The notes under the pieces were generated by a model, which ran no database searches, had not been told where the DNA came from, and was given only the letters and a program-made list of their open reading frames with translations. A stretch of DNA of 63,877 bases, counting the filler, from Dugesia japonica (Eukaryota): NCBI GenBank assembly GCA_001938525.1. It is 6 parts of 6 records of this genome, joined end to end, with 100 filler letters (N's around TTAATTAATTAA, not from the genome) between each part and the next. Parts side by side here need not be neighbours in the genome. Positions count along the whole stretch, not along the records: positions 1 to 11,422 come from MQRL01606809.1; 5 more parts are not named here. One strand, written 5' to 3'. The position numbers and the translations under genes are program-made. Positions 66 to 54,390 of this stretch are shown here, in pieces (within the stretch, counting starts at the first letter, position 1; every line of letters begins with the position of its first letter).

Positions 66-880
66 ATGTCTCAGTTGATCGTTAAAACTCCGGCTGCGTT
101 GATCTGGAATAAAAATAAAAACATTTAATAATAAAATTTTTCGATCTAATTTTAGATTATTAATAATCGGTTCATCAGGATTAGGTAAAAATGTTTTGTT
201 AATGAAAATGTTATTAACTCCAGAGTTTTTAGATTATGACACTTTGATAATTTATTCCACAACTATAAATCAATTTGAATTATAATTACTATATCAAGGT
301 TTTGAAAATGGATTAAGTAAACAAGATATCATTTTTAATTTTAAACATCAAAACATAGTTCCTGATGCTTTAATTACTCCTTTGCAAGTTATTCAATGGT
401 TTATAGAAAAATAATATTTAACAAATAAACCAAGATCTATTGACTCTTCTGGGATAAGCGTAGTTCTAAGTAATAAACCAAATGAAATTATTCCTTGTGA
501 TAAATTATCTAAACTGAAAAAGAATTTAATAATTTTTGATGATGTAGTAAATGTAAAAGATCATGAAATCCAGAAAAGTTATTTTACTAGAGGAAGACAT
601 GTAAATTTTAATGTAATTTATATTTCTTAAACTTATTTTCATTTAGATAAAAAACTCTATTAGAAACAATTCTATTTCTTTTATATTTTTGAAATCTAAT
701 AAAACTGATAAAGATAATGTTTATTATGATTTATTTAGTAATATATTTTCAAGTAAAAAGGAATATGATTATAATGTAAATTTACATTGGAAAACCAAGT
801 ATAATTATTATTATTTAAATAGAGAAGCTGAAGTTTTAATAGAAGATTTGTTTGAAGAAGAAGAGCGATTTCAAGAGTGA
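66..880 (+). pseudogene. Polinton genome-packaging ATPase (FtsK/A32-like), disrupted
   Basis: From 151: FRLLIIGSSGLGKNVLL (Walker A), then NLIIFDD (Walker B) and YFTRGRHVNFNVIYIS*TY (arginine finger and sensor region typical of Polinton ATPases). In-frame TAA codons and frameshifts. Confidence 0.93.
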
Positions 881-999: not shown

Positions 1000-1485
1000 T
1001 TGATTTAAAATTTATTCTACTCTTTTTAAATTATTATTTATCCGATACCAAGATAATGTAAAATTAAGTAAAATTGGGAAACGTTTACATAAATTATAAT
1101 ATTTCATTAATTTAGTAATATATGGATAAGAATAGTTTATATCATTATCTTGTAATATTTTCATAAGTTCATGTTTTTTCCTTTTAACTCTTTTACCTAA
1201 ATTTTTAAAATGTCTTCCTAAATTATAATAAACTTCATTTGATTTATTTTATTTCCAAGTTAATTAAATTGGAATCTAATGTTTTAATATTAATAATTAT
1301 TGAATTTATACATTTATTCTTTTCAATTGGTATAATCTGAGGTAAATCAATTTTTATACTTTTGTAAGATCTTAAAAATAAGTCTTTGAAATAGTTATTT
1401 CTAGATTGAATACTTGTTGAAGGCAATGATGTTGAAGATAATGATTGTTCTACTTGGGGCCCTCTGGGTTGTTCTAGTTTATATT
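1000..1485 (-). pseudogene. Uncharacterised Polinton-like ORF remnant, 5'-truncated at the terminus starting at 1486
   Basis: Frame KLEQPRGPQVEQSLSSTSLPSTSIQSRNNY (ORF 1244-1426) runs up to about 1485 with no ATG. The downstream limit is approximate. Confidence 0.4.
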
Positions 1486-1810
1486 AGTAGATAGATAGTG
1501 GCGAACTGTACAACCCCCTCCTCCCCTTCAAGGTCAAATTTTTCCAAGGTCACTGGTACAGTGATATAAAATTCTGATTGGTCAGTGATATAAAATACTC
1601 GATTTTCATAAACTAATTTGTCATAAACATTCTTAGAAAAATCATTTATTTTTTCAGTCTAAAATATAAATTAATAACAATAAATTAATTAATTAAACTT
1701 ACCATATTTGTTGAAACATTTTTCTTTTAATTCATAATTAAATTTCCCGTGCAGATTTAATATTTTAATTTCCCGCGCAGATTTAATATTTAAATTTCCC
1801 GCGCAGACAA
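1486..1810 (+). repeat. Putative Polinton terminus (TIR arm)
   Basis: Starts AGTAGATAGATAG (AG-starting simple repeat, as at Polinton ends; identical to the reverse complement of 54259-54271). Non-coding and locally GC-richer, with TCAAGGTCA/CCAAGGTCA, two CAGTGATATAAAAT, ATTGG and three 26-bp repeats. Confidence 0.7.
1741..1807 (+). promoter_or_regulatory. Three 26-bp tandem repeats with E2F-like TTTCCCGC sites
   Basis: AATTTCCCGYGCAGA begins at 1741, 1767 and 1793. TTTCCCGC (copies 2 and 3) fits the E2F consensus TTTSSCGC. Confidence 0.55.
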
Positions 1811-1880
1811 TATTTTTTGTTTTAATGTTTATTTCTTTATTTTTGTTTAAATTAATTGATTTTTTGTGATTTGTTTTAAT

Positions 1881-2269
1881 TTACTGATTTTTGAGATTTT
1901 TATTTAAATNNNNNNNNNNNNNNNNNNNNNNNNNNNNNNNNNNNNNNNNNNNNNNNNNNTATACATAAATACCTTTGGGAGTTTCTAATTCAGGTTCAAA
2001 TTCAACTTTATGATTAGTTTTATGTTCAAATCTTATATCTTCTTTAAAACTTACATCACCTTTAAATCTTGAATTAGAATGGGATCTGTTGGGATCAATT
2101 TCGATTTTATTAGATTTAGATTTAATATATTCATATATATGTTTAAAACATTCACAATCTTTATGATCTTTAATAAACAACTCTAAATTATTATCATTAT
2201 AAAGAAATCTGTTATTTCTTTTTCCATTATTCTTTCCTTATAACCATATTCCAAGTCACTTCGTTCCAT
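1881..2269 (-). pseudogene. Uncharacterised Polinton ORF, frameshifted
   Basis: MERSDLEYGYKERIMEKEITDFF, a frameshift, then NDNNLELFIKDHKDCECFKHIYEY. Divergent from the structural gene block. Confidence 0.45.
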
Positions 2270-2300
2270 TTTTATTAATAAAAGATTTAAGCTTAACAAA

Positions 2301-3678
2301 ATGTTTTCAGTATCCGAACAAGAATTAATTGATTTGGTAAATTCAAATAAATCTAAATCTATGAAAATTAATGGTAGAAACTATTGAATTGGTAGTAAAG
2401 TTAAAGAAGAAATAAAAAAGAAGCTGAGTAAAGAATATGAAGGATGATATGCTTTCCTCGCTGCAATACCGGCTATAATTGCTGGCTTAGCTTCAACAGT
2501 CGGTATTATGACCGGAATTACATCAACTGTTAGTAATTCAAGAGATGCAATTAAAAAACAAAAAGAAACTGAATTAGTTTAATTACAGAAAAAGATTTAG
2601 AAAATAAAATTAAAAAAGAAGAAATACAAGAAAATAAAACTGGATCAGGACTTTACTTAAAACCATATCAAGGAAGTTCAATTCATAAATATTCATAAAA
2701 TAGTTTACCTAATTCAGAGTTGAAAATGATTACTAAAAACTTTAAAAATGGAATAAGGTTAAAATAAAAGGTGATGGTTTATTTTTAAAACCTTATGAAA
2801 ATTCTCATAATAATCCTAAAAAAATGGATAGTAAACAAATGACAGAAAGAATAAAACTTTTATAAGAATTAATTAAAACTAGAGATGATTATTATAATTT
2901 ATTTACTACAGGAGTAATTCAATCAAAAACTTTACAAGATACTTTAACTTTACAACAACAACCTTCTATTAAAGCTTTTTAAAATTTAAAAACAAAAACT
3001 AAAAACCCTTTTGAAAAAAGAATACCATTTTCTTCAAGTACTATTGTAAATACTGAATTTTTATAAACCCCAACAAATATACCTATATTTAAAACAGACG
3101 TTATTGATAATAAAAAATTTCAAAGAATTATTTTTCCTAATCTTAAAGGATCACAAACAGTAATATATTTATTTGAAGAAAATGGAAAGAAATACTTTTT
3201 AAATTACTAAGAACTAATACCTTATACTGAAGAAATCATGAATTTAATTTTAGGAAATGGAAGTGATGATCCCGAAGCAAAAGATATTTATTTAAATAAA
3301 TTTAATATTACAGTTCATCCTAAATCTAAATATTATAAATTTTTAACTGGGGAAAAAACATCAAAAATACCTAAGCTTAAAAACGTTTTTGAAAGTGAAA
3401 AAGAAATTCCTATAAAAGAAATCTTAAAGGGTCCCATCCAAGAAGATATCAAAGGTGATGGTTTAGAATTAATTTCAAATTCAGAAGATCCAATATCTTT
3501 ATTTGAAAGATTAACTTTATTAATTTGAGCTGTAAAAGCTGGGCATAATAATTTATACAAAGAAATTAAATCTGTTTGTCAAGAATTATTAAACCAAGCC
3601 CAAAGGGGCACATTAATTACCAAAGAAAAATATAATGTTTATAAAAATAAATACTTTAGGTATAAAACCTTTCCATAA
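2301..3678 (+). pseudogene. Polinton virion core / membrane-lytic precursor-like protein, disrupted
   Basis: EG*YAFLAAIPAIIAGLASTVGIMTGITSTVSNSRDAIKKQKE (hydrophobic/amphipathic helix after a GG site), GSGLYLKPY and GDGLFLKPY repeats, and a C-terminal DPISLFERLTLLI*AVKAGHNNLYKEI motif resembling conserved animal Polinton proteins. Confidence 0.7.
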
Positions 3679-3682
3679 TAAA

Positions 3683-4348
3683 ATGTCTCATCAATTTTTA
3701 GTTGTTGGTAAAGAATCTGATTTAAAAATTGATTTAAGATTTCCAATAGAATTTGATTCAGACTATGAAATGGCTTTATTATCATTTAGTTGTTATAATA
3801 TAATTTTTAATGTTACTAATAAAAATAATACTTTTATTTTAAAAGCTGAACAAAAAATGATTGAACCGAGAGCTTATGAAATTAAAGAAATGTCTAATGA
3901 ATTAAAATATCATGAAATTGAAAGGGTTCCAGATCTATCAACAACAAAATGTACTTTAACAACAAAACATTCTCTCAAGTTTAATAAAAAATCTTGTTTT
4001 CATATTATTTTAGGTTTTTTACCTAAAGAATACTTACCAGGAAAATATTATTCAGAAAATAAAGTTGATATTTTAAACATTAATATGATAAATATAACTT
4101 GCAATTTAGTTAAAGGTAATTATATCAACAACTTACCAATGAATTTATTATATTCTTTTTACGTAAATACTGTAGGTTTTGGTTTTAAAATTATAGAAAG
4201 ACCTTCTACTCCTATGTACTCAAGATTAAACTCCAAATGTATTGATTCTTTAAAATTTAATATTATAGATGAAAATAATAATCCTTTAGATTTTGATGGT
4301 GAAACTATTTCTTTATTAGTTCATATAAGAAAATGTATGGGATNTTAG
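3683..4348 (+). CDS. Polinton minor capsid protein (penton, single jelly-roll)
   Basis: MSHQFLVVGKESDL..FPIEFDSDYEMALLSF..NVTNKNN..AYEI..ILGF..INITCNLVKGNYIN..GFKIIERP..NIIDENNNPLDFDGE matches the Polinton minor capsid pattern. Frame is essentially open. Confidence 0.88.
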   Translation: MSHQFLVVGKESDLKIDLRFPIEFDSDYEMALLSFSCYNIIFNVTNKNNTFILKAEQKMIEPRAYEIKEMSNELKYHEIERVPDLSTTKCTLTTKHSLKFNKKSCFHIILGFLPKEYLPGKYYSENKVDILNINMINITCNLVKGNYINNLPMNLLYSFYVNTVGFGFKIIERPSTPMYSRLNSKCIDSLKFNIIDENNNPLDFDGETISLLVHIRKCMGX

Positions 4349-4747
4349 ATTTTCTAAAAACATTTGGAATAAATACTAAACCTAATTTTAATATGTATTC
4401 TATTGCTGATTTTTTAAATCTTGAAATAGAAATATTAATGAAAGATAAAAAGTTATTCGCGAGCGCACAGGTTTTTAAAATTATTAATTATCAAAATACA
4501 AATAAAAAATGAAGTCATTGGGTTGCTTTTCATAATCCTAAAGNGGCNTATAGTTATTATTTTGATTTTTATGGTTTAAAACCTTTTAAAGAAATTGAAA
4601 AANATGTAAATGTATATAACAAAATTCAAGTTCAACCTTTTGGAACTAGTATTTGTGGAATTTTGTGTTTTTATTTTTTATATTCACTTAGTTTTAAACC
4701 CCTTTCATGAAATTATTGAAGAATTATATATTACTCTATATAAATGA
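4333..4747 (+). pseudogene. Adenain-like (adenovirus-type C5) maturation cysteine protease, disrupted
   Basis: IINYQNTNKK*SHWVAF (catalytic His), YYFDFYGLKP (Asp) and QVQPFGTSICGILCFYFL (Gln oxyanion hole and catalytic Cys). Premature TGA and a 3' frameshift. Confidence 0.9.
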
Positions 4748-5928
4748 ATATATTTGGAGCTACTTTAAATAGTCAAAATAATACAGAAGTATTAAAACAT
4801 GTCTCTGCTAAATTAAAATTAGAATCTGTAAACAACGATAAAAGGTTTGTTAATGAAAGTGGTGATTCGATTACTTGTTTGAAAATTATCAATGAACCTA
4901 AAAATGAATTGGGTGCTATTAATTTAAAATATTTTACTAAATTAGAAAAACAAGTTTCTGAGCTGACACTAACAACGAGAAATCAAAATATTTATATTCA
5001 ACAACTTTTTGAAATTAATAAATCATGGATAAAAACCAAATTTGATTTCATTATTAAAAAAAATAAATTAAATGAATCTTTTATTTCTTTTAAAAACGAG
5101 CAAACACAAACAAAAAGTGATCCCAACGGGTCTTATTTTAAAAATGAGTTAACACAAACGAAGAATGAGAAAAATATTAATGAGAAAATAATGGAATTGA
5201 AAAAAGAGATCGCGAAGCTCACACAAAAATTAATAATTTATCTAGTAATTGTTCTCCTGAAAAATTTTAAAAAATAAATTTAGAATTGCAAAAATTAAAT
5301 TACAAAATCAATTTTAATAAAAAAAATGATGAATGATCCTTTAATTTCTTTAGAAACAGAATTTAATAAAATAAAACAAGATCTTCATGTTGATCGTGTT
5401 AAAGAAATTAATGATTGTATTGATAAATTATAAAAACAAGCATCATCTGAAAAACTTTATGAACAAGATTTATTAGACAGGATTAAAAAAGTAATTGATA
5501 ATTATTTTCCATTTCTTGTTTTAAAAAATTATGGTAAGTTTGATGATGTATTAATATTTTTATTAACTACTTTAATTACAAAGAATGACCCCATTAAATT
5601 CTCACTACCAACTTATTATGGTTTAATATCACCATTTAAAAGAAAAAGAAAAGGAATATTAAAAGATAATAAATATTATTACCTTGAAAAACCATTATAA
5701 CTTTATTTTCGTTTAAATAGAGTAAGATATAAGGCTTATTTAATAATTCAAGGTTATTGTGACATTTCATTTTTCGAAATATATGTAATAATTGATAAAA
5801 TTCCAAAAATATTTGAATACAATTTTATTCAAAAACAAGAATTTACTTTTTTTATAGAATACAAAGAAATTTTATTAACTGATAAATATATTGTAGATAC
5901 AGTTACTTTAATTTTACCTAAAAATATT
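4744..5928 (+). pseudogene. Putative fibre/receptor-binding protein
   Basis: N-terminal MNIFG, a stalk-like EPKNELGAINLKY motif, a long coiled coil, then broken downstream frames (5327-5928). Located after penton and protease. Confidence 0.45.
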
Positions 5929-6049
5929 TNNNNNNNNNNNNNNNNNNNNNNNNNNNNNNNNNNNNNNNNNNNNNNNNNNNNNNNTGAATTATCGAAACCC
6001 AAATTATTACTAAAATAAAATTTCTGAAGATTTAAACGAGAATGAACAA

Positions 6050-6568
6050 ATGCAAGCTGAAAGTGAAAATAAAAATTTATATCCAAATTTAGAAAAATAT
6101 ATTTACAAAGACCAAAAATATACTATTCAAGATCTAAAAACTAAATTATCAAATTTAATAATTGTTGATTTTGAATCAGATCTTTATTTCATTAATGATA
6201 AAATTAACCATTACAAAAAGATTTATAAAAGATGGTCAAGGTTAGATACTTCAATTAGATTTACAGAAATATTTATTGAAACAATTGTTGGAATAACTGG
6301 AACTGTTTTAATTTCTTTAGGAACTTTTGGAATATTAGGAGCTATCGCTCCTATAATCTTAACTACGACAGTTTCTTGCATTCCTATAATTGGAACTTTA
6401 AATTCATTTTTAATAAAATCAAAAAAGAAGAAATTTAAAAATTTAATTCATGAATTAGAAAAAGCTTTATCAGATGATGTATTAACCGATGACGAAATTT
6501 CAACAAGCAAGAATATAGTTAAACAAGTTAAAGATTTGATTTCACATGAAAAAAATAAAGAAGTTTAA
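6050..6568 (+). CDS. Polinton-associated membrane protein (two hydrophobic segments)
   Basis: NLYPNL..HYKKIYKRW..TIVGITGTVLISLGTFGILGAIAPIILTTTVSCIPIIG..KALSDDVLTDDE resembles a recurrent Polinton 2-TM protein with a KALxDxxIxxxE motif. Confidence 0.65.
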   Translation: MQAESENKNLYPNLEKYIYKDQKYTIQDLKTKLSNLIIVDFESDLYFINDKINHYKKIYKRWSRLDTSIRFTEIFIETIVGITGTVLISLGTFGILGAIAPIILTTTVSCIPIIGTLNSFLIKSKKKKFKNLIHELEKALSDDVLTDDEISTSKNIVKQVKDLISHEKNKEV

Positions 6569-6649
6569 TATGAAAGTGAAATTTTAAAGAAACTTGAAGA
6601 AAAAATTGAAAATCAACAAAAAGTAATTAATAAATTAAAGAAATAAATT

Positions 6650-6671
6650 AATTGTGCGCGCGCGCACAATT
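6650..6671. terminator. Perfect 22-bp palindrome between convergent viral genes (candidate 3'-end signal)
   Basis: AATTGTGCGCGCGCGCACAATT is its own reverse complement and lies between the end of the plus-strand block and the end of polB. Function is inferred. Confidence 0.4.
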
Positions 6672-6675
6672 TTTT

Positions 6676-9600
6676 ATATTAAATTACAATTTAATTTTTG
6701 TTTTAATTTATCTAGTCTTAAATGCCAATGATTACAAATTTCACATTTAAACTTATTTCCATGGGGCCAAGTTCTGACTCCATTATCCTCGATTAGTCTT
6801 TTCTCGTCATAACCTGTTAATGCTATCTTTTTTCGTTCAATTTACTCAATTTCATGTTTATTTGATTTTAAACTATTATTGGTTCCATAGATTATTTCTT
6901 TTGAGTTTAAAGCTTTATCAAATTGATTCATCCCTATTTCATAAAATTTTGAAACTCCTTTGTCTTTTATCTAATTTATTGTTATCGTATTCATATGCAT
7001 AACTTTACGATTTTATAAAGTCACATTTAGTTATTTCATTATTTGGTTTCTCATCTTTTATTTGGAATAAATTATTTCCTAATAAATTTTCTACTTGTGT
7101 TAAATTATTTCTACCTATAATTTCTACAAATATAGAATTTGTATCTGAATAATGAACTTTATACTTGTTTGGGATCTTTACATCTAACTGATTATAAATA
7201 AAATCATATATAACTTCTTTTGCATTTTCTAAAATAGTGAAACCAATGTATGGAAACTTGTTATATTTTAATTTACTTTGTCTTAAATGAATAGCAGCTG
7301 TTTCTGCTTCTCCTGTTTCTGTACACGTAAATATTTTACTTGCTTTAAAATTTATTTTAGAAGCGAAGTTTTGATAATCTTTATCTGTTCCAACTATTTC
7401 AACATTGCATCTTTTTCCAATATCTTCTAATGTTTTACCATAAAAAGCATTATTTAATAATTTAAAAAAGTAATCACCAAACACATCATTATTTTTTTTT
7501 GATATATTTCTCTGATCAATGTTAAATTGTATATAATTTTTTAACCATGGTTTTGTTGGCATAATATATTTTGAATGGATTTTTTTAATTTTCATTCCTA
7601 AAGATAANTACAAATCTAATGTACTTCCTAAAACTATATAATTTTGTTTATCAAATTGATTCAATGTTAGTTTAATATTTTTCTTTGATAATTTCTTTTC
7701 AATACTTATTTGATATGACCCCAACATTTCTTCTGTAATATTTATTCTATCTCGAGCTAGAGGAAAGTATTTTGTCTTTTCGTCTATTTCAGGAGGACAT
7801 TCTAAATCCACTTCATAAATGTAATTTATTTTATCTGTTGATTGTGTATATTCTAAGTCTTCAACTTCATAAATTCTACCGGTAGGTAAAGGTTTTGTCA
7901 TACAGGATGCGTAAAGACTGTTTTCATCTAAATATTTAATAAATGTATCTTCAAAATAATTTTCTGGAATTGTTTTTCCTTCTTTCATTAATTTTAATAA
8001 ATCTTTTTTTTCTGCAATATTTATTTTTTCATAATCATTGTTTTTATTACTGTTATGATTAAAAACTTGTCTTTCTCCACAAACACTTAAATAACCACCT
8101 CTTACACCTCTTTCTATTTTTAAAAATGTGTTATATGTGTCTTCTTTGGCATATTTTAGTTTTTGTTAAGTAAATTTCATACCTGCAGCCCAGGTTAATT
8201 CTGGTGCAGAATAACAATAGCTTGGATCTATTTGATAATTGTTTAAACAAATCTCTCTAAAGTTTTCAAAGAAATCTGCTAAAATAATTACATCTAATTT
8301 CGTGTAATGTAACATGTATTCAAATAAATTATTGAATCGTTGGAAGTCTTGTAAAAATTCATTATAATCTTGTTCAGATATTTTTTGTTGTTTTAGTTTA
8401 TTGTTAAAATCTACTTTTGATGGAACTCTTTCTGATTTTAATAAATTAATTACTTGATTAATATTTTTTCCTTTAACATATTCATAAGGAAATGATATTT
8501 TCATTGGAACAAGATTAAAAGATTTTAGATAGCTTTATTTTTTTGATTGATTTAATAATTTACCTATTGTGTCAATTGATGTAAATGGACACATTCTCGA
8601 TGAATCTAAAAATCTGGTCTGTCTAAATTCAAAGGAAATGTACACTTCATCTGTATGTGGAATTATTCTTTTTATTTCTTTGGGATATTTAGTTAATAAT
8701 TCTTTGAAAAACAAATGATTATTATATCCTGAAGCATTGTGAAAATAAAAAGGAATAAATAAATNTTTTATTGATTTGTCTTGTAGATTACAAATATTAT
8801 GAGCATAACCTCTATATTTTCCATCAAAGTGATCATGATCAATTACTAGGTTTTCAATGATTAATTAATTACAATATATGCATTTTAGGTGAGCTTGCTC
8901 ACCTTCCCTATGTTCAGAAACTTCGTAACAAGGAACTTCACCTCTTAAATAAGGGATTAAATTATTTTCTTTTATATCATTTAATTTATTATTAATTTCT
9001 TCTAAAAATTCAAAGAACTGTTCGTGTATGTTTTCTCCATAAAATACTTTATATTCATTTTGAATTAAATGCTGATATTTAATTTTTATGTAAATTCCAA
9101 GAGATAAAGGTTTTTGTTTATTTGTGTTGGAATTCGTCCAACTTTCGAAATCTGCATAAATTACAAAAGGTAATTCATTTGAGAAATAATTATTTTTAAA
9201 TGAAAAATATTTATCTGTTTTAAACTAAACACTTGATGAATCGTGATTTATACATTCTTTTTGATATTTTGTTAATAAATCTTTACTTCTATATGAATTC
9301 ATACAGCATAAACACAAATGATTTTTATGATTATTAGTATTTACAAAAACACCAACATTTCTACATAAAATATAATGACCTTCGTAAAATAATAAATTAC
9401 ATTTATTTGGGACCTCCTCTGGGCATCTGGTGATGGATTACTATCATAATGAGAAGTATAAATAGGATAGATTTTAGCAGAGTTAATTACTTCAAAAACA
9501 CTTACTTTAAAATTATTTAATTTTTCAAATATTTTTACATCATCAATAATAGCTGGAAAATTCATTCCATTTATTTTTAATTCATTTAAATAAGGAATAT

Positions 9601-11260
9601 ATTTTGAAACTNNNNNNNNNNNNNNNNNNNNNNNNNNNNNNNNNNNNNNNNNNNNNNNNNNTAAGGGATTAAATTATTTTCTTTTATATCATTTAATTTA
9701 TTATTAATTTCTTCTAAAAATTCAAAGAACTGTTCGTGTATGTTTTCTCCATAAAATACTTTATATTCATTTTGAATTAAATGCTGATATTTAATTTTTA
9801 TGTAAATTCCAAGAGATAAAGGTTTTTGTTTATTTGTGTTGGAATTCGTCCAACTTTCGAAATCTGCATAAATTACAAAAGGTAATTCATTTGAGAAATA
9901 ATTATTTTTAAATGAAAAATATTTATCTGTTTTAAAATAAACACTTGATGAATCGTGATTTATACATTCTTTTTGATATTTTGTTAATAAATCTTTACTT
10001 CTATTTGAATTCATACATCATAAACACAAATGATTTTTATGATTATTAATATATACAAAAACACCAACATTTCTACATAAAATATAATGACCTTCGTAAA
10101 ATAATAAATTACATTTATTTGGGACCTCCTCTGGGCATCTGGTGATGGATTACTATCATAATGAGAAGTATAAATAGGATAGATTTTAGCAGAGTTAATT
10201 ACTTCAAAAACACTTACTTTAAAATTATTTAATTTTTCAAATATTTTTACATCATCAATAATAGCTGGAAAATTCATTCCATTTATTTTTAATTCATTTA
10301 AATAAGGAATATATTTTGAAACTCTAGTTGGATGATATTCAAATACATGTTTATGAGCTAAAGTAGAATATAGAAAACAATAATCATCTTTATTTTTAAT
10401 ATTAATTATACCTGGTTTAATAAAAGGTAATTTTTTATAAGTTGCTCCAACAATTGATTGATATTTTGAAAGTTCAATTTTAAAATCAACAATATGATCT
10501 AAATTCCATCCACTTTCATTTTGATCTTCATCTTCCATGTATCTTTGAAGTTGATTTATCAAATCATTTACAATAATTTTGTCATCATTTTTGACAGTAA
10601 TTCTTTCATTATTTGAATATGAATTAAATACTTTTTCTTCATCTTCTTTAGTACAATTACAATTTACACTCAAACAAACCATCATCTTTTTTGAATAATC
10701 AAAATAAATATCAAAAATTTTAGTAATTTCTTTTTTAAACCAGGTTATTAATTTAAAATTTAATTTTTGTACATTTCTAGTTAGTTCAATTTTACTTTCT
10801 TTAAAATATTCAATATTATAATACTTTATATTTTTTAAATGTTTAAATAATTCTCGGGTTTCATTCTTTTCAAAATCGATTGCTTCATCTTCAGGTAATT
10901 TATCAAATAATTTTTTAGTTTCATCTTCTTTCAATTTCAAAACACTCTCTTTGTGTATTCCACTATTAAGATGTGATTTTGCATGATTTGTCTAGTAAAT
11001 TTTAAATTGCAAATATCACAATACAATTGAAATTCACCAATCACACAAGAAGCTCTATTACTTCCACAATTTGTGAAGTTTTTATGCAATCGCAAGCCTT
11101 TTTCACTTTATAATCTTTTGAAACAAATGTTACATGTGTGATAATCGTGTACCGATCTTGCACAGGTTCGAGATGGGATATGCGACGACAACCCTGCATT
11201 ATTTTTAAAAATCTTGTTACAAACAGGACATTTAAAAATTACTGTTAAAGCCATATTCAT
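6676..11260 (-). pseudogene. polB: Protein-primed family B DNA polymerase with N-terminal Zn fingers, terminal protein, vOTU protease and EndoVII/HNH insertion; inactivated
   Basis: ATG at 11260; CPVC..H, CNIC..H and CDIC..H fingers; ESGWNL; NIKNKDDYCFLYS...EGHYIL (OTU Cys/His); Exo I VIYADFES; VIDHDHFDGKYRGYAHNICNL; Exo II FHNASGYN; Exo III YTKLDV; motif A YLDENSLY; motif B KLLNNAFYGK; motif C YSDTNS (catalytic D changed to N); C-terminal KIALTGYDEKR. Confidence 0.96.
8950..10323. repeat. About 660-bp near-identical duplication across an N gap inside polB
   Basis: 8950-9611 is repeated at 9662-10323 with a handful of substitutions. Probably an unmerged contig overlap. Confidence 0.85.
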
Positions 11261-11422
11261 TTTATAGAGAATAAATTTAGTTAGATAAAAATAACTACCT
11301 TAAAGGTTCTTATTTTGGGTTTGGGTTAATGTTTAAATCTTTCACATAAATTATCAGTATTTTTTTATTTCATTTGTAATATTTATACAATCCATATTTG
11401 TAATAATTAAATCATCATCATC

Positions 11423-11522
11423 NNNNNNNNNNNNNNNNNNNNNNNNNNNNNNNNNNNNNNNNNNNNTTAATTAATTAANNNNNNNNNNNNNNNNNNNNNN
11501 NNNNNNNNNNNNNNNNNNNNNN
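11423..11522. other. Artificial scaffold linker
   Basis: N44-TTAATTAATTAA-N44 (stops in all six frames). Confidence 0.97.
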
Positions 11523-11571
<49 letters not shown>

Positions 11572-11759
11572 ATAATATTATTTTGAGGATTTGTATTAAG
11601 TATATTTTAATTTGTTGTAATTAGTATCTGTAATTGGATTTATATTTGAATGGTATTAATTTGTAGGTTATTTGAATATATTTGTTTTTACATTGTTTGA
11701 TAATTTATAAATTAGAAAAAGAGTGTTGTTTTAATATTGAAAGTAATTTGGATTAGTTT

Positions 11760-13770
11760 GAAAGAAGACAAGAAGAATTTTATTGTCATGAATAAATTGT
11801 TGGAATTTAAAAAATTATCTTTTGTTGACATCGCACCTATATCTTATATGATGGCAGTGGTTAACACAAACGCTCGAACAGATAGGATACTACCAGAAAT
11901 TTTGGGAAGAAATGATGACATCAAAAAATTTNAAAAAATGGGAGATATACTTTCAAGTAAAAGGTATTTCAAATAAGAATGAACAAGAAAAGTTAGTTAC
12001 TTGTTTGATTGACGAAGTTAGTATAAATAAATATATTAAAACTTTTTAAAATTAATCTTAAGGAAATTATAACAGATCTAGCTACATATTGTATTTCCAT
12101 CAATCACAAGAAATAATTATATAAGACGATCGATTTATTGTAATGGATAAAAGCTTCCTGCTTCTGAACGTGATGTAATGAAACTAAATCTTCAAGATTA
12201 TGAAGAAAAGAGAAATAAAATAATTTCAAACATAATGGAAAAGATTGAAAATGAAGTAAAATTTAGCATATATGCTGACGACTACACAACTGTAAAAGGA
12301 AGACGATATTTTGGCGTTAATATTCATAGCAATGATGATAGAGCAACAATAAAAATTGGTCTTGTGCATATCCTCTTGATATATGCTCTGCTCTTGATAT
12401 AGTTGAGGCAATGAAAAATCATTTAGTTGGATCTGACATTACTTTACCTAAAGATATTGTTGGATCACCACAGGACAGTGCTGCTGTCAATAAAAAATAC
12501 ATTCGAAATTTTGATGTAATTTGACAATTATTCTTAAATTATGCTTGGCATTTAGGATTATGTAATACATTAAATAAAAGAAAAAGTCAAGAGGATAAGG
12601 ATGATGATGATGATCAGATTATGGATAGTAATGAAATTGATGATATTGATGAAACCGATACATTTGATGATGAAATGGATATAGAAATTTTAAGTAATGA
12701 TGCAATAGAACAAGAAATTTATTATCACGATCTATTAGAGAAGTCAAGGAAATTTGTTAGCTTTATCAAAAATTAACGGTTCGCAAAAATGTGTTTCTAG
12801 ACAAGGTACAAGAGGAAATAGACCATGAGATAGAACTGCATCTCGATATTAAAACGCGATGGAATTCAATTCAAAAGATGATTGAGCCACTGATAAAAAC
12901 TGAAACAGCCATTTGGGAGACATTAATTGAATTTCAAGCATTAAAAATAATTGAAGATCTTGATTTTTCTGCTCTTAAACTGCTACACAGAGCAATGGAA
13001 CCTGTAAAATTAGCTGTCGATAATCTCAGTCGCAAAGATGCAACATTAGTAAGCGCCGAAAATATTTTGCAATTTATGTTTATGAAACATTCTGACATAA
13101 ACCATGACTTTAGTAACAAACTTATGGAAAATTTAAAAATTGGTGTAGATGAAAAAATAAATGAAGATGTCATGAAATTATTGCGAAGCCTTATGGATCC
13201 AACTTTTACGCCATCAAAAGCGACACTTACATCTCCAGGAAATCTTACCTCTCGTCCTTTTGGTGTTACTGATACGAAGCGGCTCAACAACCGTTGAATA
13301 TTTATCAAAATGAAAGTTTATTATTACAAGATGAATTAAATATGTTTCTCCAAAAATATGAATTATAAAAACATTCCTCAGGATTAGGATCAGAGTTTAA
13401 GTGGTTCAAATCGGAATTTACATTATCAAAAAATACAGGTCATCAAACTGAAAACCTATAAAAACCATATAACGCAATGCTTTGTATTAAACAAACGTCC
13501 ACAGATATGGAACGCGTGTTTCCGGTATGCAGTAACTTTTGCACCCAAATAAGATCGTGCCTTTCTGATAGATCACTTCAAGCTCTTGTGTTTTTAAAAT
13601 ACTAATATATGAAGTAAAATGCAATAGTTAAATGGTAGTTTTTATATATGATAAAATAAAATGTAAGTTAGCAATAAAATCTTTTACTTTAAGAAATTTG
13701 AGAAAAATAAAAAACAGAAAAACAGCTGGTTTTTGAAAAACCATAATTGGAAAATAAGCATTTAGAGAAG
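11760..13770 (+). mobile_element. hAT DNA transposon, decayed transposase
   Basis: FSIYADDYTTVKGRRYFGVNIH (first Asp region), LHLDIKTRWNS, and C-terminal TSTDMERVF..IRSCLSDRSLQALVFLK (hATC dimerisation domain). Confidence 0.9.
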
Positions 13771-14504
13771 CGTGAATTAAAGTTGAGTGGCGCGAACGAT
13801 AGTGAGTTTGAAACAACCAGGAAAGAAAAGTTGGAAGTTCAATTATGTTGTAAGACAGAGTAGGTAACGTTTGAAGTTGTGAGTCAAGTGTCTCCAAGTA
13901 TGATAAGAGGAATGGAATTTTGATATACTTTTNGGTTACAATTGGTTAAAAAGGAAAATTTCCAAATGAGTATTAAAGGAAAAAATTATATCTGTAATTT
14001 AGAAACAAATTTTGGTAGGCAGGTTAATGAAAGTGAGCGTTGGAGGAAAGTATGTAATAGTAAAAATTGGAATGGATATATGCCATTTGAAGAGATATGC
14101 ATGAATAAAGTAACTGTTTTTATGGCAAATAAATGAGATGAAGGGAGAACTCACGTGGTTAAACATTTTTTGTTGACCAGAAAGTCCATTCTTTAACTTC
14201 ATTATTTTAAATTTTCTTAAATCTGAATATTTTCGAAAATATTCATCAAATTTTTCTTGTAAAGATAGAAAAGATTAACTTTTTTTAGAAATAGAAACCT
14301 ATGAATTTCAGATTAAACAGCAATATTTGTCATCTATCATTGCAGAAAAAAGAAATCGGATTCCCACTCGTTATGAAAATGATATTTCTTCGTGCATTTA
14401 TAGTTAGATTTTGTAATTCAAAAGCAGACATTTTCAAAGTTTATTAAAATTAAATTAAATCAATAATCTTTAAACAAATATGTTTAAATATTATATCTAA
14501 TATC

Positions 14505-17160
14505 ACTCCACCTTAATCCTTTTGAACATCTGTCCTTTTTAGCAACTCGATCCTTTGTGGTTTAGGGATTCCAGAATAATTTAAAAGCACTTGATGTGAG
14601 CTTAGAAATTTTAATATTTTAAAAGGACCATCATATCTGTATCCATGTTTCTTTAAATTGTGAGGTTCCATCTTTATTAGAATTTATTCCCCTTCAACAA
14701 AATTCCGTTGTACTCTTTTATCTGATTCATATTCATTTAATTTCAGTGCAGCATTTTTAAAATTTTTATTAACTAATTTTCTAACTTCTCCAATACTTGT
14801 ATTGTCATTTAGTCATGGTCCATGAATAATATTTTTTCTTCCATAAATTATTTCAAACGGTGATACTCCAGTTGCTTTTTGTTGGGTTACATTAATTGAA
14901 AATTGAATTCGAGTTATTAGTTTATCCCAACTAAACTCTTCTCATCCAATTTTTATTGTAGTGACAATCATATCACGTAGAGTCCTGATCATTCTTTCTG
15001 CCAATCCGTTTGATTGATATTGGTATGGAGACGAAAATTCTTGGGTAATTCCAAATTTGAGAGTCATTCCTTTCATAAATTTTCCTTCAAATATCTTGCC
15101 TGTACCTGTCATTTTGGATTTGGGCTTGCCAAATCTATATATCCAAATCTCTTTTATTGATTCAACTACAGATTTTTCGTCTTGTTTTGCCATGGCCTAC
15201 AAGCTAACAAATTTGCAGTATCAATCTATAATGACTAAAGCATACTTCTTCTTTAACTTTGATTCATCAAAATAAGCTATATTAATGACAATCTGTTCTA
15301 ACGCTCCAGATTCAGTTCAAGGTAATAAAAATTCTTTTTTTTTGCCTATATATATTTTTTATTGCAAATTAAACATTTTTAAACTCATGTTCAATTGTTC
15401 TAAACATATCTGGCCAAAAGTAAGTTGTTTGAATATATTCAGTTAATTTTTTCGTTCCCAGGTGACATAATTCTTCATAAAAGTAATTTATTAAATCAAC
15501 AACTGATTTACTTGCTAAAACAATTATCTTCGTTTCAATAAACAGTAATATATCTTCTTCCATAACGAATTTATCAATATCTCTAAAGTATTTCTACTAA
15601 CTTGGAAACTTTTATCTTTGGTTATTTGATCATTACTTTGACTTTTTTTGATACTTTCTTTATCATAATTTGAGCTTTCTATAATATTTATTCTTCTAAC
15701 TTTAGATTTTTCACCTTTTGCAATGTGATGAGTCGCCAAACATTGAGCACACAAACTTTCTACTATTCTTGATAATCCATCAGCATTTCCATGATCAATG
15801 CCTCTACGAAATTGAAGATCAAAATAAAATTCTGCTAGGTTTGTAATCCACGTCTGGAACTATGAACTAATTGGTTTACTTGTATTCTTCATAAACACTA
15901 ATTCTTTGTGGTCAGTTTTTGCTATGAACTTTTTCCGTAAATATAATGCTTGAAATGAATCAAAAAAATTCCTATAACGCCAATAGTTCATTTTGGGTTA
16001 CACAATAATCCTTGCCATGATCATTCAAATTACGAGATGCATAAGCAATAACAATTTCCACACCATCTCTCGACAATTGACACAAAACAGCACTAATTGC
16101 ATTGAAACTTGCATCTGTAACTAATATAATTTTGCTTTGAAGATTTGGAAATGCCAAGATTGGAGAACTGCATAATTTTTCTTTCAGTAGTTTTAAGCAA
16201 CTGTCACATTCCTCAGTCCACTCTACGACTTCTTTTGATCCAGTTATTGTTGCATATAATGGACTGGCAATTGTTGAGCAATCTTTAATAAACATACGAT
16301 AATAATTTGTCAATACCAAGAAGATTCGAATTTGGGTTACATATTTTGGAATAACAGNTTCTTTTACTTTATTAATAATGTTATCATTTGTTTCAACACC
16401 TTTAGAACTGATATGTATGGCCAAGAAATGTCAGTTTTGATACACTAAATATACATTTTTCAGGATTAATTTTGAGACCAGATTGTTCAATTAGTTCTAA
16501 CACATTTTGTAAATGTTTATCATAAATTTCTTGTGTCTGACCAAAATTAAAATGTCATCAAGATAAACGAGCGCTCCAATAAATAAAGTCTTGTTAAAAA
16601 TTTTATGCATTATTCTTGAAATGTTGCAGGAGCAGTGCATAATCGGAACGGCATGCGATTGAAACAAAATTGTCCCATTTTTGTGCTGAAAACTACTTTT
16701 AATTCTGACTTCTCAGTTAATTCAATTTATAATATGCCTGTCCTAGATCGATTGATGAGAAAAACATAAAGCTATTTAATGTAGTCAATAACATATTTAT
16801 ATCTGGAACAGGAAATGAATATTTTTCAGTTACCGAATTTAATTTCCTAAAATCAAGGCACATTCTGGGAGAATCATGTTTTTTTGGAACAATTTTTAAT
16901 GGAGAATTCCATGAACTTCGACAAGGTTTTATAATATTAGCTGATAATATATTTTGTATTAATTCGTCTATATTGCCTTTTAAATGCATAGGTTTTATCA
17001 ATACGGGTTCTCCTTTAGTTTCTATGTTATGCATTGTCATATTTGTTAACCCTACATCAAATTTCGAATTCATCAAAATGTGCTCATATTTATCAAGTAA
17101 TTAAATTATTCTATTGTTGACATTTAGCTTGAGTGTATTCATTTTTTTATTACTATGTTT
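14505..17160 (-). mobile_element. Ty3/Gypsy LTR retrotransposon pol (RT-RNaseH-integrase), decayed
   Basis: RMCLDFRKLN, SIDLGQAY, LVYLDDI, LVTDASFNAISAVL, ELCHLGTKK, SSPYQYQSNGLAERMIRT and a GPF motif. PPT AAGGTGGAG followed by TG at about 14505. Confidence 0.93.
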
Positions 17161-17882
17161 CTTATTTTTGCATATAACATCTATTGAATCTAAGAAATTG
17201 ATCTCTTTTATTCCCATTCCAGACACTTTCATTATATCGATACCACCTATAAGTTAAATTTAAAGTCTCACAAGTCTCCATAAATTGTTTATGGATTATT
17301 ACAAGTCTTTTCTTAAAAATAAAAATATGAAAGAACAATTCGCAAATTTCAAACAAATAATCTGAGAAATCTTTATAAAATATTTTTCAAAAATATTGGT
17401 TTTTAAAATTCCAAAATAATTATTTTTAAACCTTATTTTCGAAAATAATTTTTAAAATTTTATAATTTAACACCATGTAAAATTTTAACTTTAATTTAAA
17501 ATATCTTTGTTTTANNNNNNNNNNNNNNNNNNNNNNNNNNNNNNNNNNNNNNNNNNNNNNNNNNNNNNNNNAAATTTTATATTTTAAAAATTTCAAAAAA
17601 ACCAATCTTAATATTAAATATAAAAATTAAAAAATCTCAGACATAGGAAATTCATGAATCGATACTCACACCACCAATTAAATATGGACAAATGTCTTTA
17701 TTAGGGATATAATTAATCAATTAATTAATTTAAATAATATATGTATTTATATTTGCATCACATAATTCGCATCGTAATCTCTTCGAAAGATAATTAATAT
17801 TTCATCTTATGTAATAATAAGAAATGGAAATTATTATATCATAATTTAACCTATGATAAATGAAATCATTGGTTGATATTTG

Positions 17883-17916
<34 letters not shown>

Positions 17917-17997
17917 CGATGAATCAGACGTGATTCAGAATATATTTTGATATTTAATAAATATTTGTAATAGATTGGTGTTGAATCTTAACCTAAC

Positions 17998-19854
17998 ATG
18001 GCGACCACACAGGCTCTAATAAATCCTTTTCGATCTAGAAACCTTCATTTCAGATTGCCAGAGATTTTTTGACATTGCAAATATTGACGAAAATTCAAGA
18101 GGATTAATCATCGAAACAATGATTAAAAGAGAATTGATTTCAATTTATGAAGCAGTTGAAATCAACATTACTAATTTTGAAAAAAAGATTGAGAAAAGCG
18201 TTTCAAAAGCCAAGTTTACTTATTAGTCATCTTAAAGAAATCATGGAATACCGAAAAGGATTTACAACTGCGGAAAAATGTTTTGAAGATGTAAATCGTA
18301 TGTAAAAAATGAACTAACAAAGCATTTTTTTAATTCGTTGCGTTGATGACAAAGAAATTCAGAAAGAAATAAAAATGAGAGAAACAACAGATGTGCCAGA
18401 AATTAAAAAATTATTAAAAAGATGGATAATATTATGATAGATGAAGAAGTTGCGAGTTTCATTTGCAGTAGTGGTCAGAGGTGAGAAGAAATTTAGAGAA
18501 TATCAAAACAAAAATATTAAACCGCTCATGTGAGGGAACATCAAATGCCTAAGAAAACAATGTGTTGGACATGCGGATATGAAGGTCATTTTTCATGACA
18601 ATGTAGAATGGTGCCAAATGTAATATACTATGCTTGTAATGAAGAAGAACATATCCAAAGAAATTGTCATAAAGTCAAATCCAATAATTGTCATCGATCA
18701 GGCCATTTGGAAAAACGGTGAAAATTACCATATGAAGAGATGATCGGAGCCATGCAGTAAAAGGTGGAATTTATGTTGGCACAAATTATTCATATTATAA
18801 TAGATGCAGTGATAATACGTATTAAATAAGTAAATTTGATTACAATAATATTAATAATAAATTAAATAAAATTAAATATTTTGATAATGAAAATTTGATG
18901 ATTAAGAATATTGATTTAAATAATGATAAAAATTTTAATAACTTTAATAATAGGGAATTAATTGAAAATAATTATTTTGATAATCGAAATGTTATGATTA
19001 AAAGTAATGGTTTAGATAATGATATAATGTTTGATGATAGTAATTTTTGCCGTAAAATATTAATTAAAATGAATTATTTTGACAAGAAAATTTTATGATA
19101 AAGAATAATAACTTAAATATTGATAAAATAAATAAGTCTTGTAGAAATTTTTGTGTGGAAAATAAGAGAAAATCAATAGATAAAAGTGCTATAATGGATA
19201 AAAATAGAATATTAACTTCGGAATTAGAAATTATAGACAAAAGTTTTGAAAGAAATGGTGATGAAATATTTGAGGAAAATTATGAGATTTTAGAAAATTT
19301 TGATAAAATAATTTTAAAATTAAAAAGAATATAAATACAAATGTTCCTATAATGACAATAGATGAAATGAATGTAGAAGCAGAAATTGTTTATAACATTA
19401 TGCAAGGAAGACCTTGTTTAAAAATATAATTGAATCAGATTTGGATTGATTGTTTATTGGATACATGAGCTAGAGTAAATGTTATTGATGTTAAAATACT
19501 TAAAAGTATAGTGGATGTAAAATTTGAAATGACAAATGCTAGATTAAGAGCTGCAAATGACAGTATTATTAAGACTTTAGGAAAGGAAATATTGAAAACT
19601 TAAATTAATGGTTGTACCAAATGAATTGAATTTATTGTAGTGGACAAATTATCTCTAAGTGTTATTGGTGGGATTGATTTACAAAATAAATTTAATATTA
19701 AGCTTAAAATAGAACCGGTAAATGAAGAACAAATTAATTATCAAGTATGTGAAATTATTGCAAATTTTGGTAAGGAAGTTACTGATGATCAAAGATTTGA
19801 GAAGGCCATAAAAACTTTTAAAATAAATAAAATTTCTGAATTATATCGTATAAT
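17998..19854 (+). mobile_element. Ty3/Gypsy gag-protease fragment
   Basis: Three CCHC knuckles, two degenerate (CWTCGYEGHFS*QC etc., about 18560-18720), and aspartic protease LLDT*ARVNVI at about 19454. Confidence 0.8.
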
Positions 19855-25500: not shown

Positions 25501-25839
25501 CCCTCTTTTTTCATATTCAATAATTTCCAAAAAATGATAATTTAAAAAAGTAATTCGAATAAACTGAAAAATTAAACAATAATTTTTAAAATAAATTGTT
25601 ATAATTTACGTAAAAAATGAAAATCCAAAATTTTACGGGTTTACAATTTTGTCCATAAATCACTACACAAGAATTTTTAAAAACAAACAAATATAGGTAA
25701 AAAAAATTATAACTCTAAAATATGGTTATATATTTAATGAGTTAAATAAATTGGTATATGGTACCATATAATATATTAATATTGTCCGCCATTTTCTTGT
25801 GCGCAATTTTCTGATCACGCATGCATTCACCTATTATAA

Positions 25840-26310
25840 TATAATAATAAATAGTTATTAATTAATAGTAATTAATTATTAATTAATAGTAATTAATTCA
25901 TAATAAATAGTAATTAATTAAAAATTAATAGTAATTAATTAATAGTAATTAATTAATAAATAATGATTAAAAATGAATAATTAATGATTAAAAATGAATA
26001 ATTAATGATTAAAAATTAATGATTAATAATTAATGATTAAAAATTAATAATTAATGAATAATAATAATTAATTAATAGTAATCATTTATTAATTAATGAT
26101 TAAAAATTAATGATTAAAAATTAATAATAATTAATTAGTAGTAATTAATTAATGATTAAAAATTAATGATTAATAATTAAAAATTATTAATTAATGATTA
26201 AAAATTAAAAAATTAATGATTAAAAATTAATAATTAATGATTAAAAATTAATAATTAAAAATTAATAGTTAATAATTAAAAATTAATAATTAATGATTAA
26301 TTAATGATCT
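25840..26310. repeat. AT-rich low-complexity satellite
   Basis: Degenerate repeats of TTAATGATTAAAAATTAATAA / TTAATAGTAATTAA. Confidence 0.85.
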
Positions 26311-28401: not shown

Positions 28402-28990
28402 NNNNNNNNNNNNNNNNNNNNNNNNNNNNNNNNNNNNNNNNNNNNNNNNNNNNNNNNNNNNNNNNNNNNNNNNNNNNNNNNNNNNNNNNNNNNNNNNNNN
28501 NNNNNNNNNNNNNNNNNNNNNNNNNNNNNNNNNNNNNNNNNNNNNNNNNNNNNNNNNNNNNNNNNNNNNNNNNNNNNNNNNNNNNNNNNNNNNNNTTTCA
28601 AATATTCAAAGGTCAATATAGAAATATTATACAATTATTAGTCATATATCACATTTGGATAATTATTTGAATTATTTGTAATTCTTTCATATAGTTCAAA
28701 AAATGAAATTAAATCATTTGGAATATTTTTATTTCTCCCCAATTAACTTTCGTTTTAATTTAAGTCGATTATATTGGTTGTGAATTATTCTTATTTGTTT
28801 CCCATTGCTGGTTATAAACTATTTTTGTAATTTTCAGGTAGTTAAGTTACCTTTGCATTATTACTACATTTAAATTATTACTTTGGCTAGGTTCGGTCTC
28901 AACATTATTATTATTATTATTATTATTANNNNNATTATTATTATTATTATTATTATTAAAATAATTTTTATTTAAACCAAAATTATTCAG

Positions 28991-29560
28991 AATTGTGCTA
29001 GAATTGGTAGTTATTCGAAATGTCCATCTGCTTGCACGATAATAAAATACAACAAACATAACAAAAACAAAGAAAAAATCAATCCTAACAGTTTTCAATT
29101 AATTTTGGTGAAGAGCGATAATGTGCATATTGCTACTGAAGAACAAATTTACACGTTGACCAAACTATTTAGTGAAATTGGAGGGCTGTGTTCCTTGTTT
29201 ATAGGGTTCAGTTGCATATTTATTTTTGAGTTATTTGAAGCAGTTATTTTATGGCACAGTGGTATCGTTACTGAATGTATTAATTCTCAAATTCATACAG
29301 AAAAAACTAATATTTCTCGATATTCATTTCGACGTATTGAAATTAATCAATCAAGTGAACATTCTTCATCATCGAATAATTATAAAACGACGAATAGCAA
29401 TAAAGATATTCAATTATTCAGTTCGATTTCTATCAATGTTGAGGAACAGCCAATCAATACATCATTTCCATTTGCTCTCGGAGAGAACGATAATGATAAA
29501 GAAACTGTAATGATATTTTTATTAAAAACTAAAAATGGTGAATTAATTTTTTTGGGTTAA
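28991..29560 (+). CDS. DEG/ENaC (ASIC-like) amiloride-sensitive channel, terminal exon
   Basis: After acceptor TTATTCAG (28990): NCARIGSYSKCPSACTIIKY...EEQIYTLTKLFSEIGGLCSLFIGFSCIFIFELFE, i.e. the thumb CPxxC plus the TM2 signature. Upstream exons not resolved. Confidence 0.9.
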   Translation, partial: NCARIGSYSKCPSACTIIKYNKHNKNKEKINPNSFQLILVKSDNVHIATEEQIYTLTKLFSEIGGLCSLFIGFSCIFIFELFEAVILWHSGIVTECINSQIHTEKTNISRYSFRRIEINQSSEHSSSSNNYKTTNSNKDIQLFSSISINVEEQPINTSFPFALGENDNDKETVMIFLLKTKNGELIFLG

Positions 29561-36480: not shown

Positions 36481-36739
36481 NNNNNNNNNNNNNNNNNNNN
36501 NNNNNNNNNNNNNNNNNNNNNNNNNNNNNNNNNNNNNNNNNNNNNNNNNNNNNNNNNNNNNNNNNNNNNNNNNNNNNNNNNNNNNNNNNNNNNNNNNNNN
36601 NNNNNNNNNNNNNNNNNNNNNNNNNNNNNNNNNNNNNNNNNNNNNNNNNNNNNNNNNNNNNNNNNNNNNNNNNNNNNNNNNNNNNNNNNNNNNNNNNNNN
36701 NNNNNNNNNNNNNNNNNNNNNNNNNAAAATAAAACTTTA

Positions 36740-36780
36740 TTGTTATATATTTCGACGGATTAACCGTCATCATCAAACAA
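36740..36780 (-). ncRNA. Minimal hammerhead ribozyme in Penelope pLTR (C3U variant)
   Basis: TTGT-TTGATGA-T-GACGG ttaat CCGTC-GAAA-TATA-TA-ACAA: stem I TTGT/ACAA, 5-bp stem II, palindromic stem III. Confidence 0.7.
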
Positions 36781-40529: not shown

Positions 40530-40570
40530 TTGTCCGATGATGACGGTTGATCCGTCGAAATATATAACAA
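40530..40570 (+). ncRNA. Minimal hammerhead ribozyme in Penelope pLTR (U4C variant)
   Basis: TTGT-CCGATGA-T-GACGG ttgat CCGTC-GAAA-TATA-TA-ACAA. Confidence 0.65.
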
Positions 40571-54021: not shown

Positions 54022-54271
54022 TTATGGTAACCAATGACCTTGACCTACTTTTTTGGAAACGACCTTGACCTAGTTTCAGTTGCTAAGGACGGTTGGCATG
54101 GTAACCAAAAACATCGATACCGTTTCTATGGCGGTTGCCATGGTAACCAATGACCTAGATACCATTGCAAAGGCGGTTACCATGGAAACGACCTTGTCCT
54201 AAATTGGTTGCCATGGCAACGGGGGACCCCCCTCGACCTACTTTGTTCTGGTGTCCTCCTATCTATCTACT
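54022..54271 (-). repeat. Putative terminus (TIR) of a second Polinton family, rich in RFX X-boxes
   Basis: Ends CTATCTATCTACT (reverse complement AGTAGATAGATAG). X-boxes at 54092-54105, 54134-54147, 54176-54189 and 54207-54220 (perfect GTTGCCATGGCAAC). TGACCTTGA at 54035. The interior is cut off by the scaffold start. Confidence 0.65.
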
Positions 54272-54390
54272 CTTTGCATCTAAATTAAAAGGACGTTTGA
54301 CTGATAAACATTTACATTGTCTTTGTTTTCTGAAAACATTTTCAAAAATATGAAAAATAAAGTATCTGCTTTGTATTTATTTATTGCATC

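Follow-up and report, generated by a model that had tools for sequence, protein, structure and literature searches.

We propose, at roughly even odds (about 0.5), that positions 1486–1909 of the window, the whole stretch of 63,877 nt of Dugesia japonica DNA that was analysed, are the outer portion of the terminal repeat in a Polinton/Maverick-type element of very high copy number, in which a protein-primed origin would be accompanied by host-factor auxiliary sites. The boundary at 1486 (Table 1) is a real, sharp end of a multi-copy element. Four of the 17 listed runs supplied contigs, which were placed on 886–2385 at 80% likeness, and their summed depth, which is not a copy number, stepped up at 1486 by 138-fold (run X1), 118-fold (X2) and 113-fold (X8), thus in all three genome-sized runs, from 170–317 in the bin preceding 1486 to 19,000–44,000 in the bin after it. 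These three runs belong to three separate studies, and one best-covering run may be the assembly's own source. In run X9, the depth rose at 1486 from 0 to 77 and coverage was confined to the terminus. The step therefore marks a sharp boundary, and the family behind it has about 100-fold the abundance of the flank, which is itself repetitive. Within 1486–1935, the motif-bearing parts in X9, a small run, exceeded the AT-rich spacer in depth by far more than they did in the large runs, a pattern that enrichment, transcripts or GC bias could produce.

Table 1 Features of the two termini and of the surrounding element genes in the window
Feature	Position	Strand	Remarks
Broken A32-type packaging ATPase remnant	67..880	+	Pox_A32 E=0.0022, below the curated cut-off; Walker A visible
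Open frame, 79 codons	1244..1483	-	cut at the tip
Candidate 6-bp target site TATATT	1480..1485	+	left flank of the tip
Element tip	1486..1498	+	same 13 nt as in the 54-kb terminus, with AGTAG at the start
C-rich tract	1514..1526	+	seen in the sequence
Two YCAAGGTCA sites, 16 nt apart	1528..1552	+	at tip distances of 43 and 59 nt
Two CAGTGATATAAAAT repeats, 24-nt period	1559 and 1583 (1559..1596)	+	surround the minus-strand CCAAT box
CCAAT box	1575-1583	-	NF-Y-type
Three 26-bp units	1732..1809	+	247-324 nt from the tip; deepest bins in 4/4 runs
AT-rich 28-bp repeats	1839..1909	+	extend into the assembly gap and carry on in other copies
50-N placeholder gap	1910..1959		no strand; the 1486 element runs into it
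Broken adenain-like protease remnant, weak	4345..4710	+	best PDB matches are adenovirus proteases, E 0.9-1.1
Broken pPolB	7005..11300	-	DNA_pol_B_2 E=7.6e-10; 71 homologs at E<=1e-10
Second terminus	54022..54271	-	same 13 nt; readable for 250 nt up to the contig end

The 13-nt tip, AGTAGATAGATAG, occurs in the window only at 1486–1498 on the plus strand and at 54259–54271 on the minus strand. None of 100 shuffles gave even a single match, and allowing two mismatches brought up no further matches in the window. Five of the six letters of the outermost AGTAGA agree with the (AGT)2 Maverick end motif, the tip being neither (AGT)2 nor (AG)3 itself, and an AGTAGG variant was found in one X9 loose end among the 24 of 1,090 loose ends listed. 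The window holds neither an inverted partner of the 1486 terminus, whose element runs into the gap at 1910, nor a TATATT partner behind an inverted tip. At 1909, 39 contigs of X1 and 33 of X2 end loosely.

All the motifs that the sequence-only reading had listed in 1486–1810 were recovered in place, including TCAAGGTCA at 1528, CCAAGGTCA at 1544 and CTGATTGG at 1574. The names NR5A/FTZ-F1/ERR, E2F, NF-Y and RFX are used here for patterns that we take to be the consensus motifs. Among 20,000 dinucleotide shuffles of 1486–1810, at least one YCAAGGYCA arose in 0.4%, at least one TTTSSCGC in 1.6% and at least one RRCCAATSR in 3.3%, and all three jointly in 0/20,000; these figures are flattering because the motif patterns were picked post hoc. 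Throughout the window, all three YCAAGGYCA matches lie inside the two termini and are directed inward; the 12 RRCCAATSR matches are divided among the 1486 terminus (one), the 54-kb terminus (two) and other places, and the TTTSSCGC matches between the 1486 terminus (two) and elsewhere (three). We consider it most improbable that the motifs past the tip are functionless, short tandem duplications having multiplied chance matches in a variable terminal repeat. Each multi-copy motif does lie within a tandem duplication (periods 16, 24, 26 and 42), and a CCAAT box of the same grade occurs 12 times in the window and TTTSSCGC five times; however, one nuclear-receptor-type 9-mer is shared, in like orientation, by two ends that are otherwise unrelated and is absent from the rest of the 63.9 kb, and the second of these ends has three perfect or near-perfect RFX-type palindromes.

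This second terminus, near 54 kb, contains three CAAGGTCR sites, three RFX-type palindromes within 42-bp repeats (0/10,000 shuffles), two CCAAT boxes (RRCCAATSR at 54029 and 54145, in the same sense as the box of the 1486 terminus) and G/C runs 40–51 nt from its tip. Read inward, the two termini are identical for 13 nt and unrelated thereafter, and blastn gave no match past the 13-mer. Over their first 250 nt they differ in GC content (24% vs 47%), and the RFX-type palindromes are in the 54-kb end alone; their common features are the tip, the nuclear-receptor-type sites and the CCAAT boxes. The proposal that the sister ends share the 13-nt tip and NR5A/ERR-type sites therefore holds, with AGTAGATAGATAG in both and YCAAGGYCA in these two termini only, as does the claim of a like orientation relative to the end, CAAGGTCA being directed inward in each. 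The two termini were also considered as the ends of one element, and this was rejected: the flanks (TATATT and CTTTGC) differ and the interiors do not align. The differing flanks indicate that the termini are separate insertions. Just outside the second terminus lies one copy of a dispersed repeat, whose two copies (54388–54650 and 62724–62993) are 93% identical.

An E2F + CCAAT cassette had been taken as the hallmark of the 1486 sister, and this specificity is not supported by the comparison. The E2F-like cores of the 1486 terminus lie 258–318 nt from the tip and the 54-kb terminus is readable to 250 nt, so that the apparent lack of such cores in the latter is artefactual, the contig ending short of them. 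The 54-kb end has its two NF-Y-grade CCAAT boxes, and elsewhere an RFX-like half-site adjoins the 26-bp unit: CATAGCAAC, which is not a full palindrome, lies directly upstream of it in 20 contigs of X2 and 2 of X9 among the loose ends listed (24 of 1,090). The same 24 loose ends also include units with non-E2F cores in which the AT-rich half recurs, and CTGATTGG, CAAGGTCA and CAGTGATATA in other orders. Of the idea of modular termini, in which a conserved core is joined to swappable modules, the shared 13-nt tip and nuclear-receptor-type sites next to unalignable interiors remain, and the exclusive swapping of cassettes is not supported. Modularity itself is real, since the two ends are unrelated past 13 nt yet draw on a common motif vocabulary, and the data support the view that duplication and recombination have reshuffled a vocabulary common to the ends.

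The array with the E2F-like cores consists of three 26-bp units, with TTTCCCG(C/T)G at 1743, 1769 and 1795 (period 26). Only part of the claim of three E2F-type repeats stands: the three units exist, but just two of the three cores, at 1769 and 1795, match TTTSSCGC, the E2F consensus, and the core at 1743 (TTTCCCGTG) does not. Tandem units count as one event, not three, and a single shuffled 26-bp unit yields a TTTSSCGC match 3.4% of the time. Elsewhere in the window, two TTTSSCGC matches and one TTTCCCGTG are clustered in an unrelated repeat-like stretch (52890–52982). The repeat is present in other copies, as had been anticipated, the array being the deepest part of the terminus in all four runs: it is 4.6–16.6 times deeper than the tip bin, and position 1766 is 7–34 times deeper than 1522. 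This excess indicates that the unit is common to more ends than resemble the 1486 tip, or that the array is longer in other copies. No differences fell inside the cores 1769–1777 or 1795–1803 among the best 40 of 111 rows. Judged from its predicted site, the 26-bp unit may bind E2F/DP, at odds somewhat short of even.

It is less probable, and on balance unlikely, that the array of a Polinton terminus serves instead as a signal for packaging or replication to which the element's own proteins bind (the complex of the packaging ATPase, or a DNA-binding protein), with an incidental E2F match. The position of the array fits that of the adenovirus packaging A-repeats (nt 239–374); the unit is much deeper than the tip, which points to a unit common to many subfamilies or amplified; its AT-rich half (GAYTTAATATT) recurs where the GC core varies (among the 24 of 1,090 loose ends listed); and even a single shuffled unit matches the E2F pattern at the rate given above. 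Against such a signal, the cores at 1769–1777 and 1795–1803 are without a variant among the best 40 of 111 differences, both functions overlap in adenovirus, which leaves room for E2F, and a signal that a terminal inverted repeat (TIR) places at both ends would presumably give packaging no polarity.

We then considered the element to which the end belongs, and assign it with considerable confidence to the Polinton/Maverick type. Remnants of three genes of this class lie on the two sides of the tip (Table 1), clear for pPolB and weak for the ATPase and the protease, and the catalytic H/D and Q/C stretches of the adenovirus proteases were aligned with 4345–4710. Neither an integrase nor a major capsid gene was found among the 41 frames scanned. 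The frame at 3635–4342 has one homolog and an unusable predicted fold (pLDDT 36), and is by its position probably a minor capsid gene. Between the convergent frame at 6050–6568 and the end of pPolB, an AT-rich spacer includes a perfect 22-nt GC-rich palindrome (6650–6671), possibly a shared termination or protein-binding site. The coding stretch 2286–2385 reached a summed depth of 7,000–10,000, as compared with less than 2,600 in neighbouring genes, and the tip, at 2.6–4.6 times this bin, has a depth of like order, which an end belonging to an abundant coding family would be expected to show. This stretch is apparently the most conserved DNA among the local Polinton families. The stretch 2300–2580 presumably resembles the hydrophobic motif of the adenovirus pX/core protein, a likeness for which a PDB search gave no confirmation.

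The tip cuts a minus-strand frame of 79 codons, and we infer from this an insertion into a gene of another, lower-copy element, an older and decayed Polinton. Mean summed depth was 559–913 over 886–1485 and 428–746 in the flank right of the gap. Minus-strand open frames run up to both boundaries (79 and 92 codons), lengths found at 4.7% and 3.7% of 3,848 random positions. For the interrupted frame, no homolog of the right piece was found, the left piece gave one repetitive, spurious match, and neither had a match in Pfam or PHROGs. A joint between 1250 and 2207 was examined as a link of the two flanks and set aside as too weak, being seen in one X1 contig with 21-nt sides (15 of 21 joints listed). 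No contig spans the gap at 1910, and none joins the end physically to integrase, capsid or polymerase genes. The sequence right of the gap is at even odds the rest of the older element, at somewhat lower odds the inside of the new one and at low odds a mis-join. The similar depth, the 92-codon frame on the same strand and the genes co-oriented with the ATPase speak for the rest of the older element, and the lack of a visible second end after the gap speaks for the inside of the new one.

These flanks bear also on another reading, which we regard as distinctly unlikely, that 1486 is the end of a short non-autonomous derivative, or of another class of DNA transposon, lying wholly within 1486–1959 and collapsed sequence, with motifs that were inherited or hitch-hiking. 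The 50-N gaps appear small or negative, as at 9612 with its 662-bp overlap, which argues against a hidden element of 15–20 kb, and both flanks are similarly low in depth, with open minus-strand frames to the boundaries. However, a short derivative would be expected to show its second end right of the gap, and no terminal sequence is seen there; an element at 1960–11,400 could just as well have its true left end in this terminus; and the coding stretch and the tip are of one order in depth.

Placed beside known Polinton/Maverick (adintovirus) TIRs, the 1486 end has in common an AG-starting tip with a short internal repeat, Polinton genes nearby, and a length of at least 424 nt, which is inside the range of 46–1,447 bp. 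According to the excerpt of PMC8097293, this is the range for vertebrate Mavericks, which end in (AGT)2, (AG)3 or (AC)3A, have 6-bp duplications of the target site (TSDs), and carry end repeats with a proposed role in jumping-back (slide-back) during protein priming; TIRs of 100–1,500 bp and TSDs of 5–8 bp are given in part of 10.1101/2023.08.22.554363. The differences are that the 1486 tip reads AGTAGA(TAGATAG) and is none of these three motifs, that the two families here are conserved over 13 nt, and that host-factor motif modules are not described in the portions of those sources that were available.

A close analogue of the layout is adenovirus. In its inverted terminal repeat (ITR), the core origin is succeeded by sites for NF-I and NF-III that are gained and lost, NF-I having been gained by recombination in HAdV-E4 (PMC6410123, excerpt), and its packaging repeats at nt 239–374 overlap with the E2F-binding enhancer of E1A (PMC7851563, excerpt). 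The latter, the left-end E1A enhancer/packaging region, is a closer match than the adenovirus E2 promoter that the sequence-only reading had put forward. As in the ITR with its core origin, NF-I and NF-III/Oct-1 sites, a short conserved tip is followed by host-factor-type sites that vary among lineages; unlike it, the Polinton-type end has putative nuclear-receptor-type, CCAAT and RFX-like sites and belongs to an integrating element, and no sequence likeness is claimed. The A-repeats likewise are repeated elements at a like distance from the end, in a region with E2F sites, but they lie outside the ITR and at one end only, whereas the 1486 array is a near-perfect 26-bp tandem.

From this adenovirus layout of ITR and packaging/E1A region, we infer a scheme of tip, auxiliary zone and array for 1486, and with it an origin function. 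Protein-primed initiation by pPolB would take the AGTAG tip, together with the 13 nt common to both ends, as its template and slide back on the short repeat, and the integrase may attach at this site too. Over the ~100 nt that follow (40–110), the nuclear-receptor monomer sites and the CCAAT box would act as an auxiliary origin and as an inward promoter/enhancer. The 26-bp array, ~250–325 nt in, would be a multimerised protein-binding enhancer (or packaging array), perhaps binding E2F/DP in the 1486 subfamily. The ends of the subfamilies would share one vocabulary (nuclear-receptor site, CCAAT, RFX-like site and 26-bp unit), reshuffled by slippage and recombination. Taken together, 1486 is a genuine and abundant end, likely of Polinton type, whose modular layout resembles that of adenovirus.

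Relatives were sought in IMG/VR and in metagenomes. The 26-bp unit pattern had no match in either collection, and a single-sequence pPolB query found no related elements. Twenty-five IMG/VR matches to the tip plus CAAGGTCA were taken as chance, as none of the 25 had CTGATTGG or the E2F pattern in the next 330 nt. A pPolB alignment query afforded 104 loci (24 viral loci and the best 80 of 544 metagenome loci), among which nothing resembled either terminus beyond short AT-rich matches and no usable intact end was found. End-to-end inverted repeats were present in 3 of the 104 loci; all three were without an AG-type tip in the sequence covered, and without YCAAGGYCR in the terminal 500 nt covered. 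One of these three pPolB loci, the 17-kb IMG/VR element L027, has inverted repeats that are 98% identical (1–560 and 15318–15877), with incomplete ends, and motif enrichment in its terminal 1,013 nt was not significant (P 0.09–1.0; ends incomplete). On the pPolB-bearing metagenomic contig L111, nine AGGTCA half-sites at 10-nt spacing lie between two genes (14429–14514).

To our knowledge, Polinton terminal repeats are usually described just by their length and 6-bp end motif. No description of host-factor motif modules in Polinton ends was found in the literature searched, a scope that included parts of PMC8502044, PMC6431247, PMC10175614, 10.1101/2023.10.06.561300, PMC12116113 and PMC11464507 and that most subscription papers and Repbase lay outside. 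The 1486 family may already have been entered in Repbase. An expansion of Mavericks in planarians is described in 10.64898/2025.12.11.693146 (excerpt).

The window as a whole is AT-rich (GC mostly 19–32%) and gap-ridden, with many decayed mobile elements; a profile search placed a host-like exon of an amiloride-sensitive channel at 28976–29557, and Rfam gave no match at E<=0.1 within 1300–2400. Eight gaps of exactly 50 N are present, one of them inside pPolB and flanked by a 662-bp duplication (8950–9611 and 9662–10323, 99.2% identical), which is probably an assembly overlap and helps to interpret the other 50-N gaps. Long inverted arms, 93–96% complementary, surround a reverse-transcriptase remnant at 36726–40584, possibly a Penelope-like element with inverted ends, and an AT-only minisatellite with periods of 7, 14 and 21 nt lies at 25836–26301.

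Finally, we weighed what the motif sets may say about the cells in which these elements are active. The sequence-only reading held that subfamilies with exclusive cassettes (E2F + CCAAT vs RFX) replicate in different cell states, proliferating as against ciliated or germ cells, which we judge very unlikely. The first 250 nt of the two ends do differ completely, with RFX-type palindromes in the 54-kb end alone; transposons of planarians, Polintons among them, show tissue-specific expression (PMC8532177, excerpt), and NF-Y motifs mark germline stem-cell chromatin in a schistosome, a flatworm (PMC11398382, excerpt). However, the second end is unreadable where E2F-like sites would lie and carries two CCAAT boxes, the RFX-like half-site adjoins the 26-bp unit upstream in the 20 X2 and 2 X9 contigs (24 of 1,090 loose ends listed), and the same excerpt of PMC8532177 links tissue specificity to where in the genome the copies lie. 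Multiciliated cells, too, make use of E2F proteins, to go by a reference title in PMC5838959 (excerpt), so that E2F versus RFX is no clean divide. As for other data from a planarian, in the portions available, Polintons are piRNA-silenced and become desilenced in differentiation (PMC8532177), motif presence alone is no predictor of regulation and promoters of stem-cell genes are without enriched motifs (PMC10558129), and CCAAT is enriched in intestinal and epidermal promoters (PMC10558129). The use of different motif sets by sister elements for different cell types is not supported by the visible sequence. There is a slim chance that subfamilies keep the common tip and tune their ends with reshuffled transcription factor sites, so that the terminal repeat encodes the reactivating cell state; the nuclear receptor and NF-Y sites would then be constant, and E2F and RFX would come in varying dose.

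The principle of host-factor sites in viral ends is already known from adenovirus. We know of no account of where and when animal Polintons replicate, or of their particles and host cells. If the host-factor sites are real, the ends would point to factors and cell types that are testable with chromatin and single-cell data, and would provide candidate enhancers, dispersed and in large number, the summed depth of the family being ~100 times that of neighbouring repeats. If the ends were indeed tuned in this manner, they would amount to a readable tropism code, for example for cycling stem cells as against germ-line or ciliated lineages.
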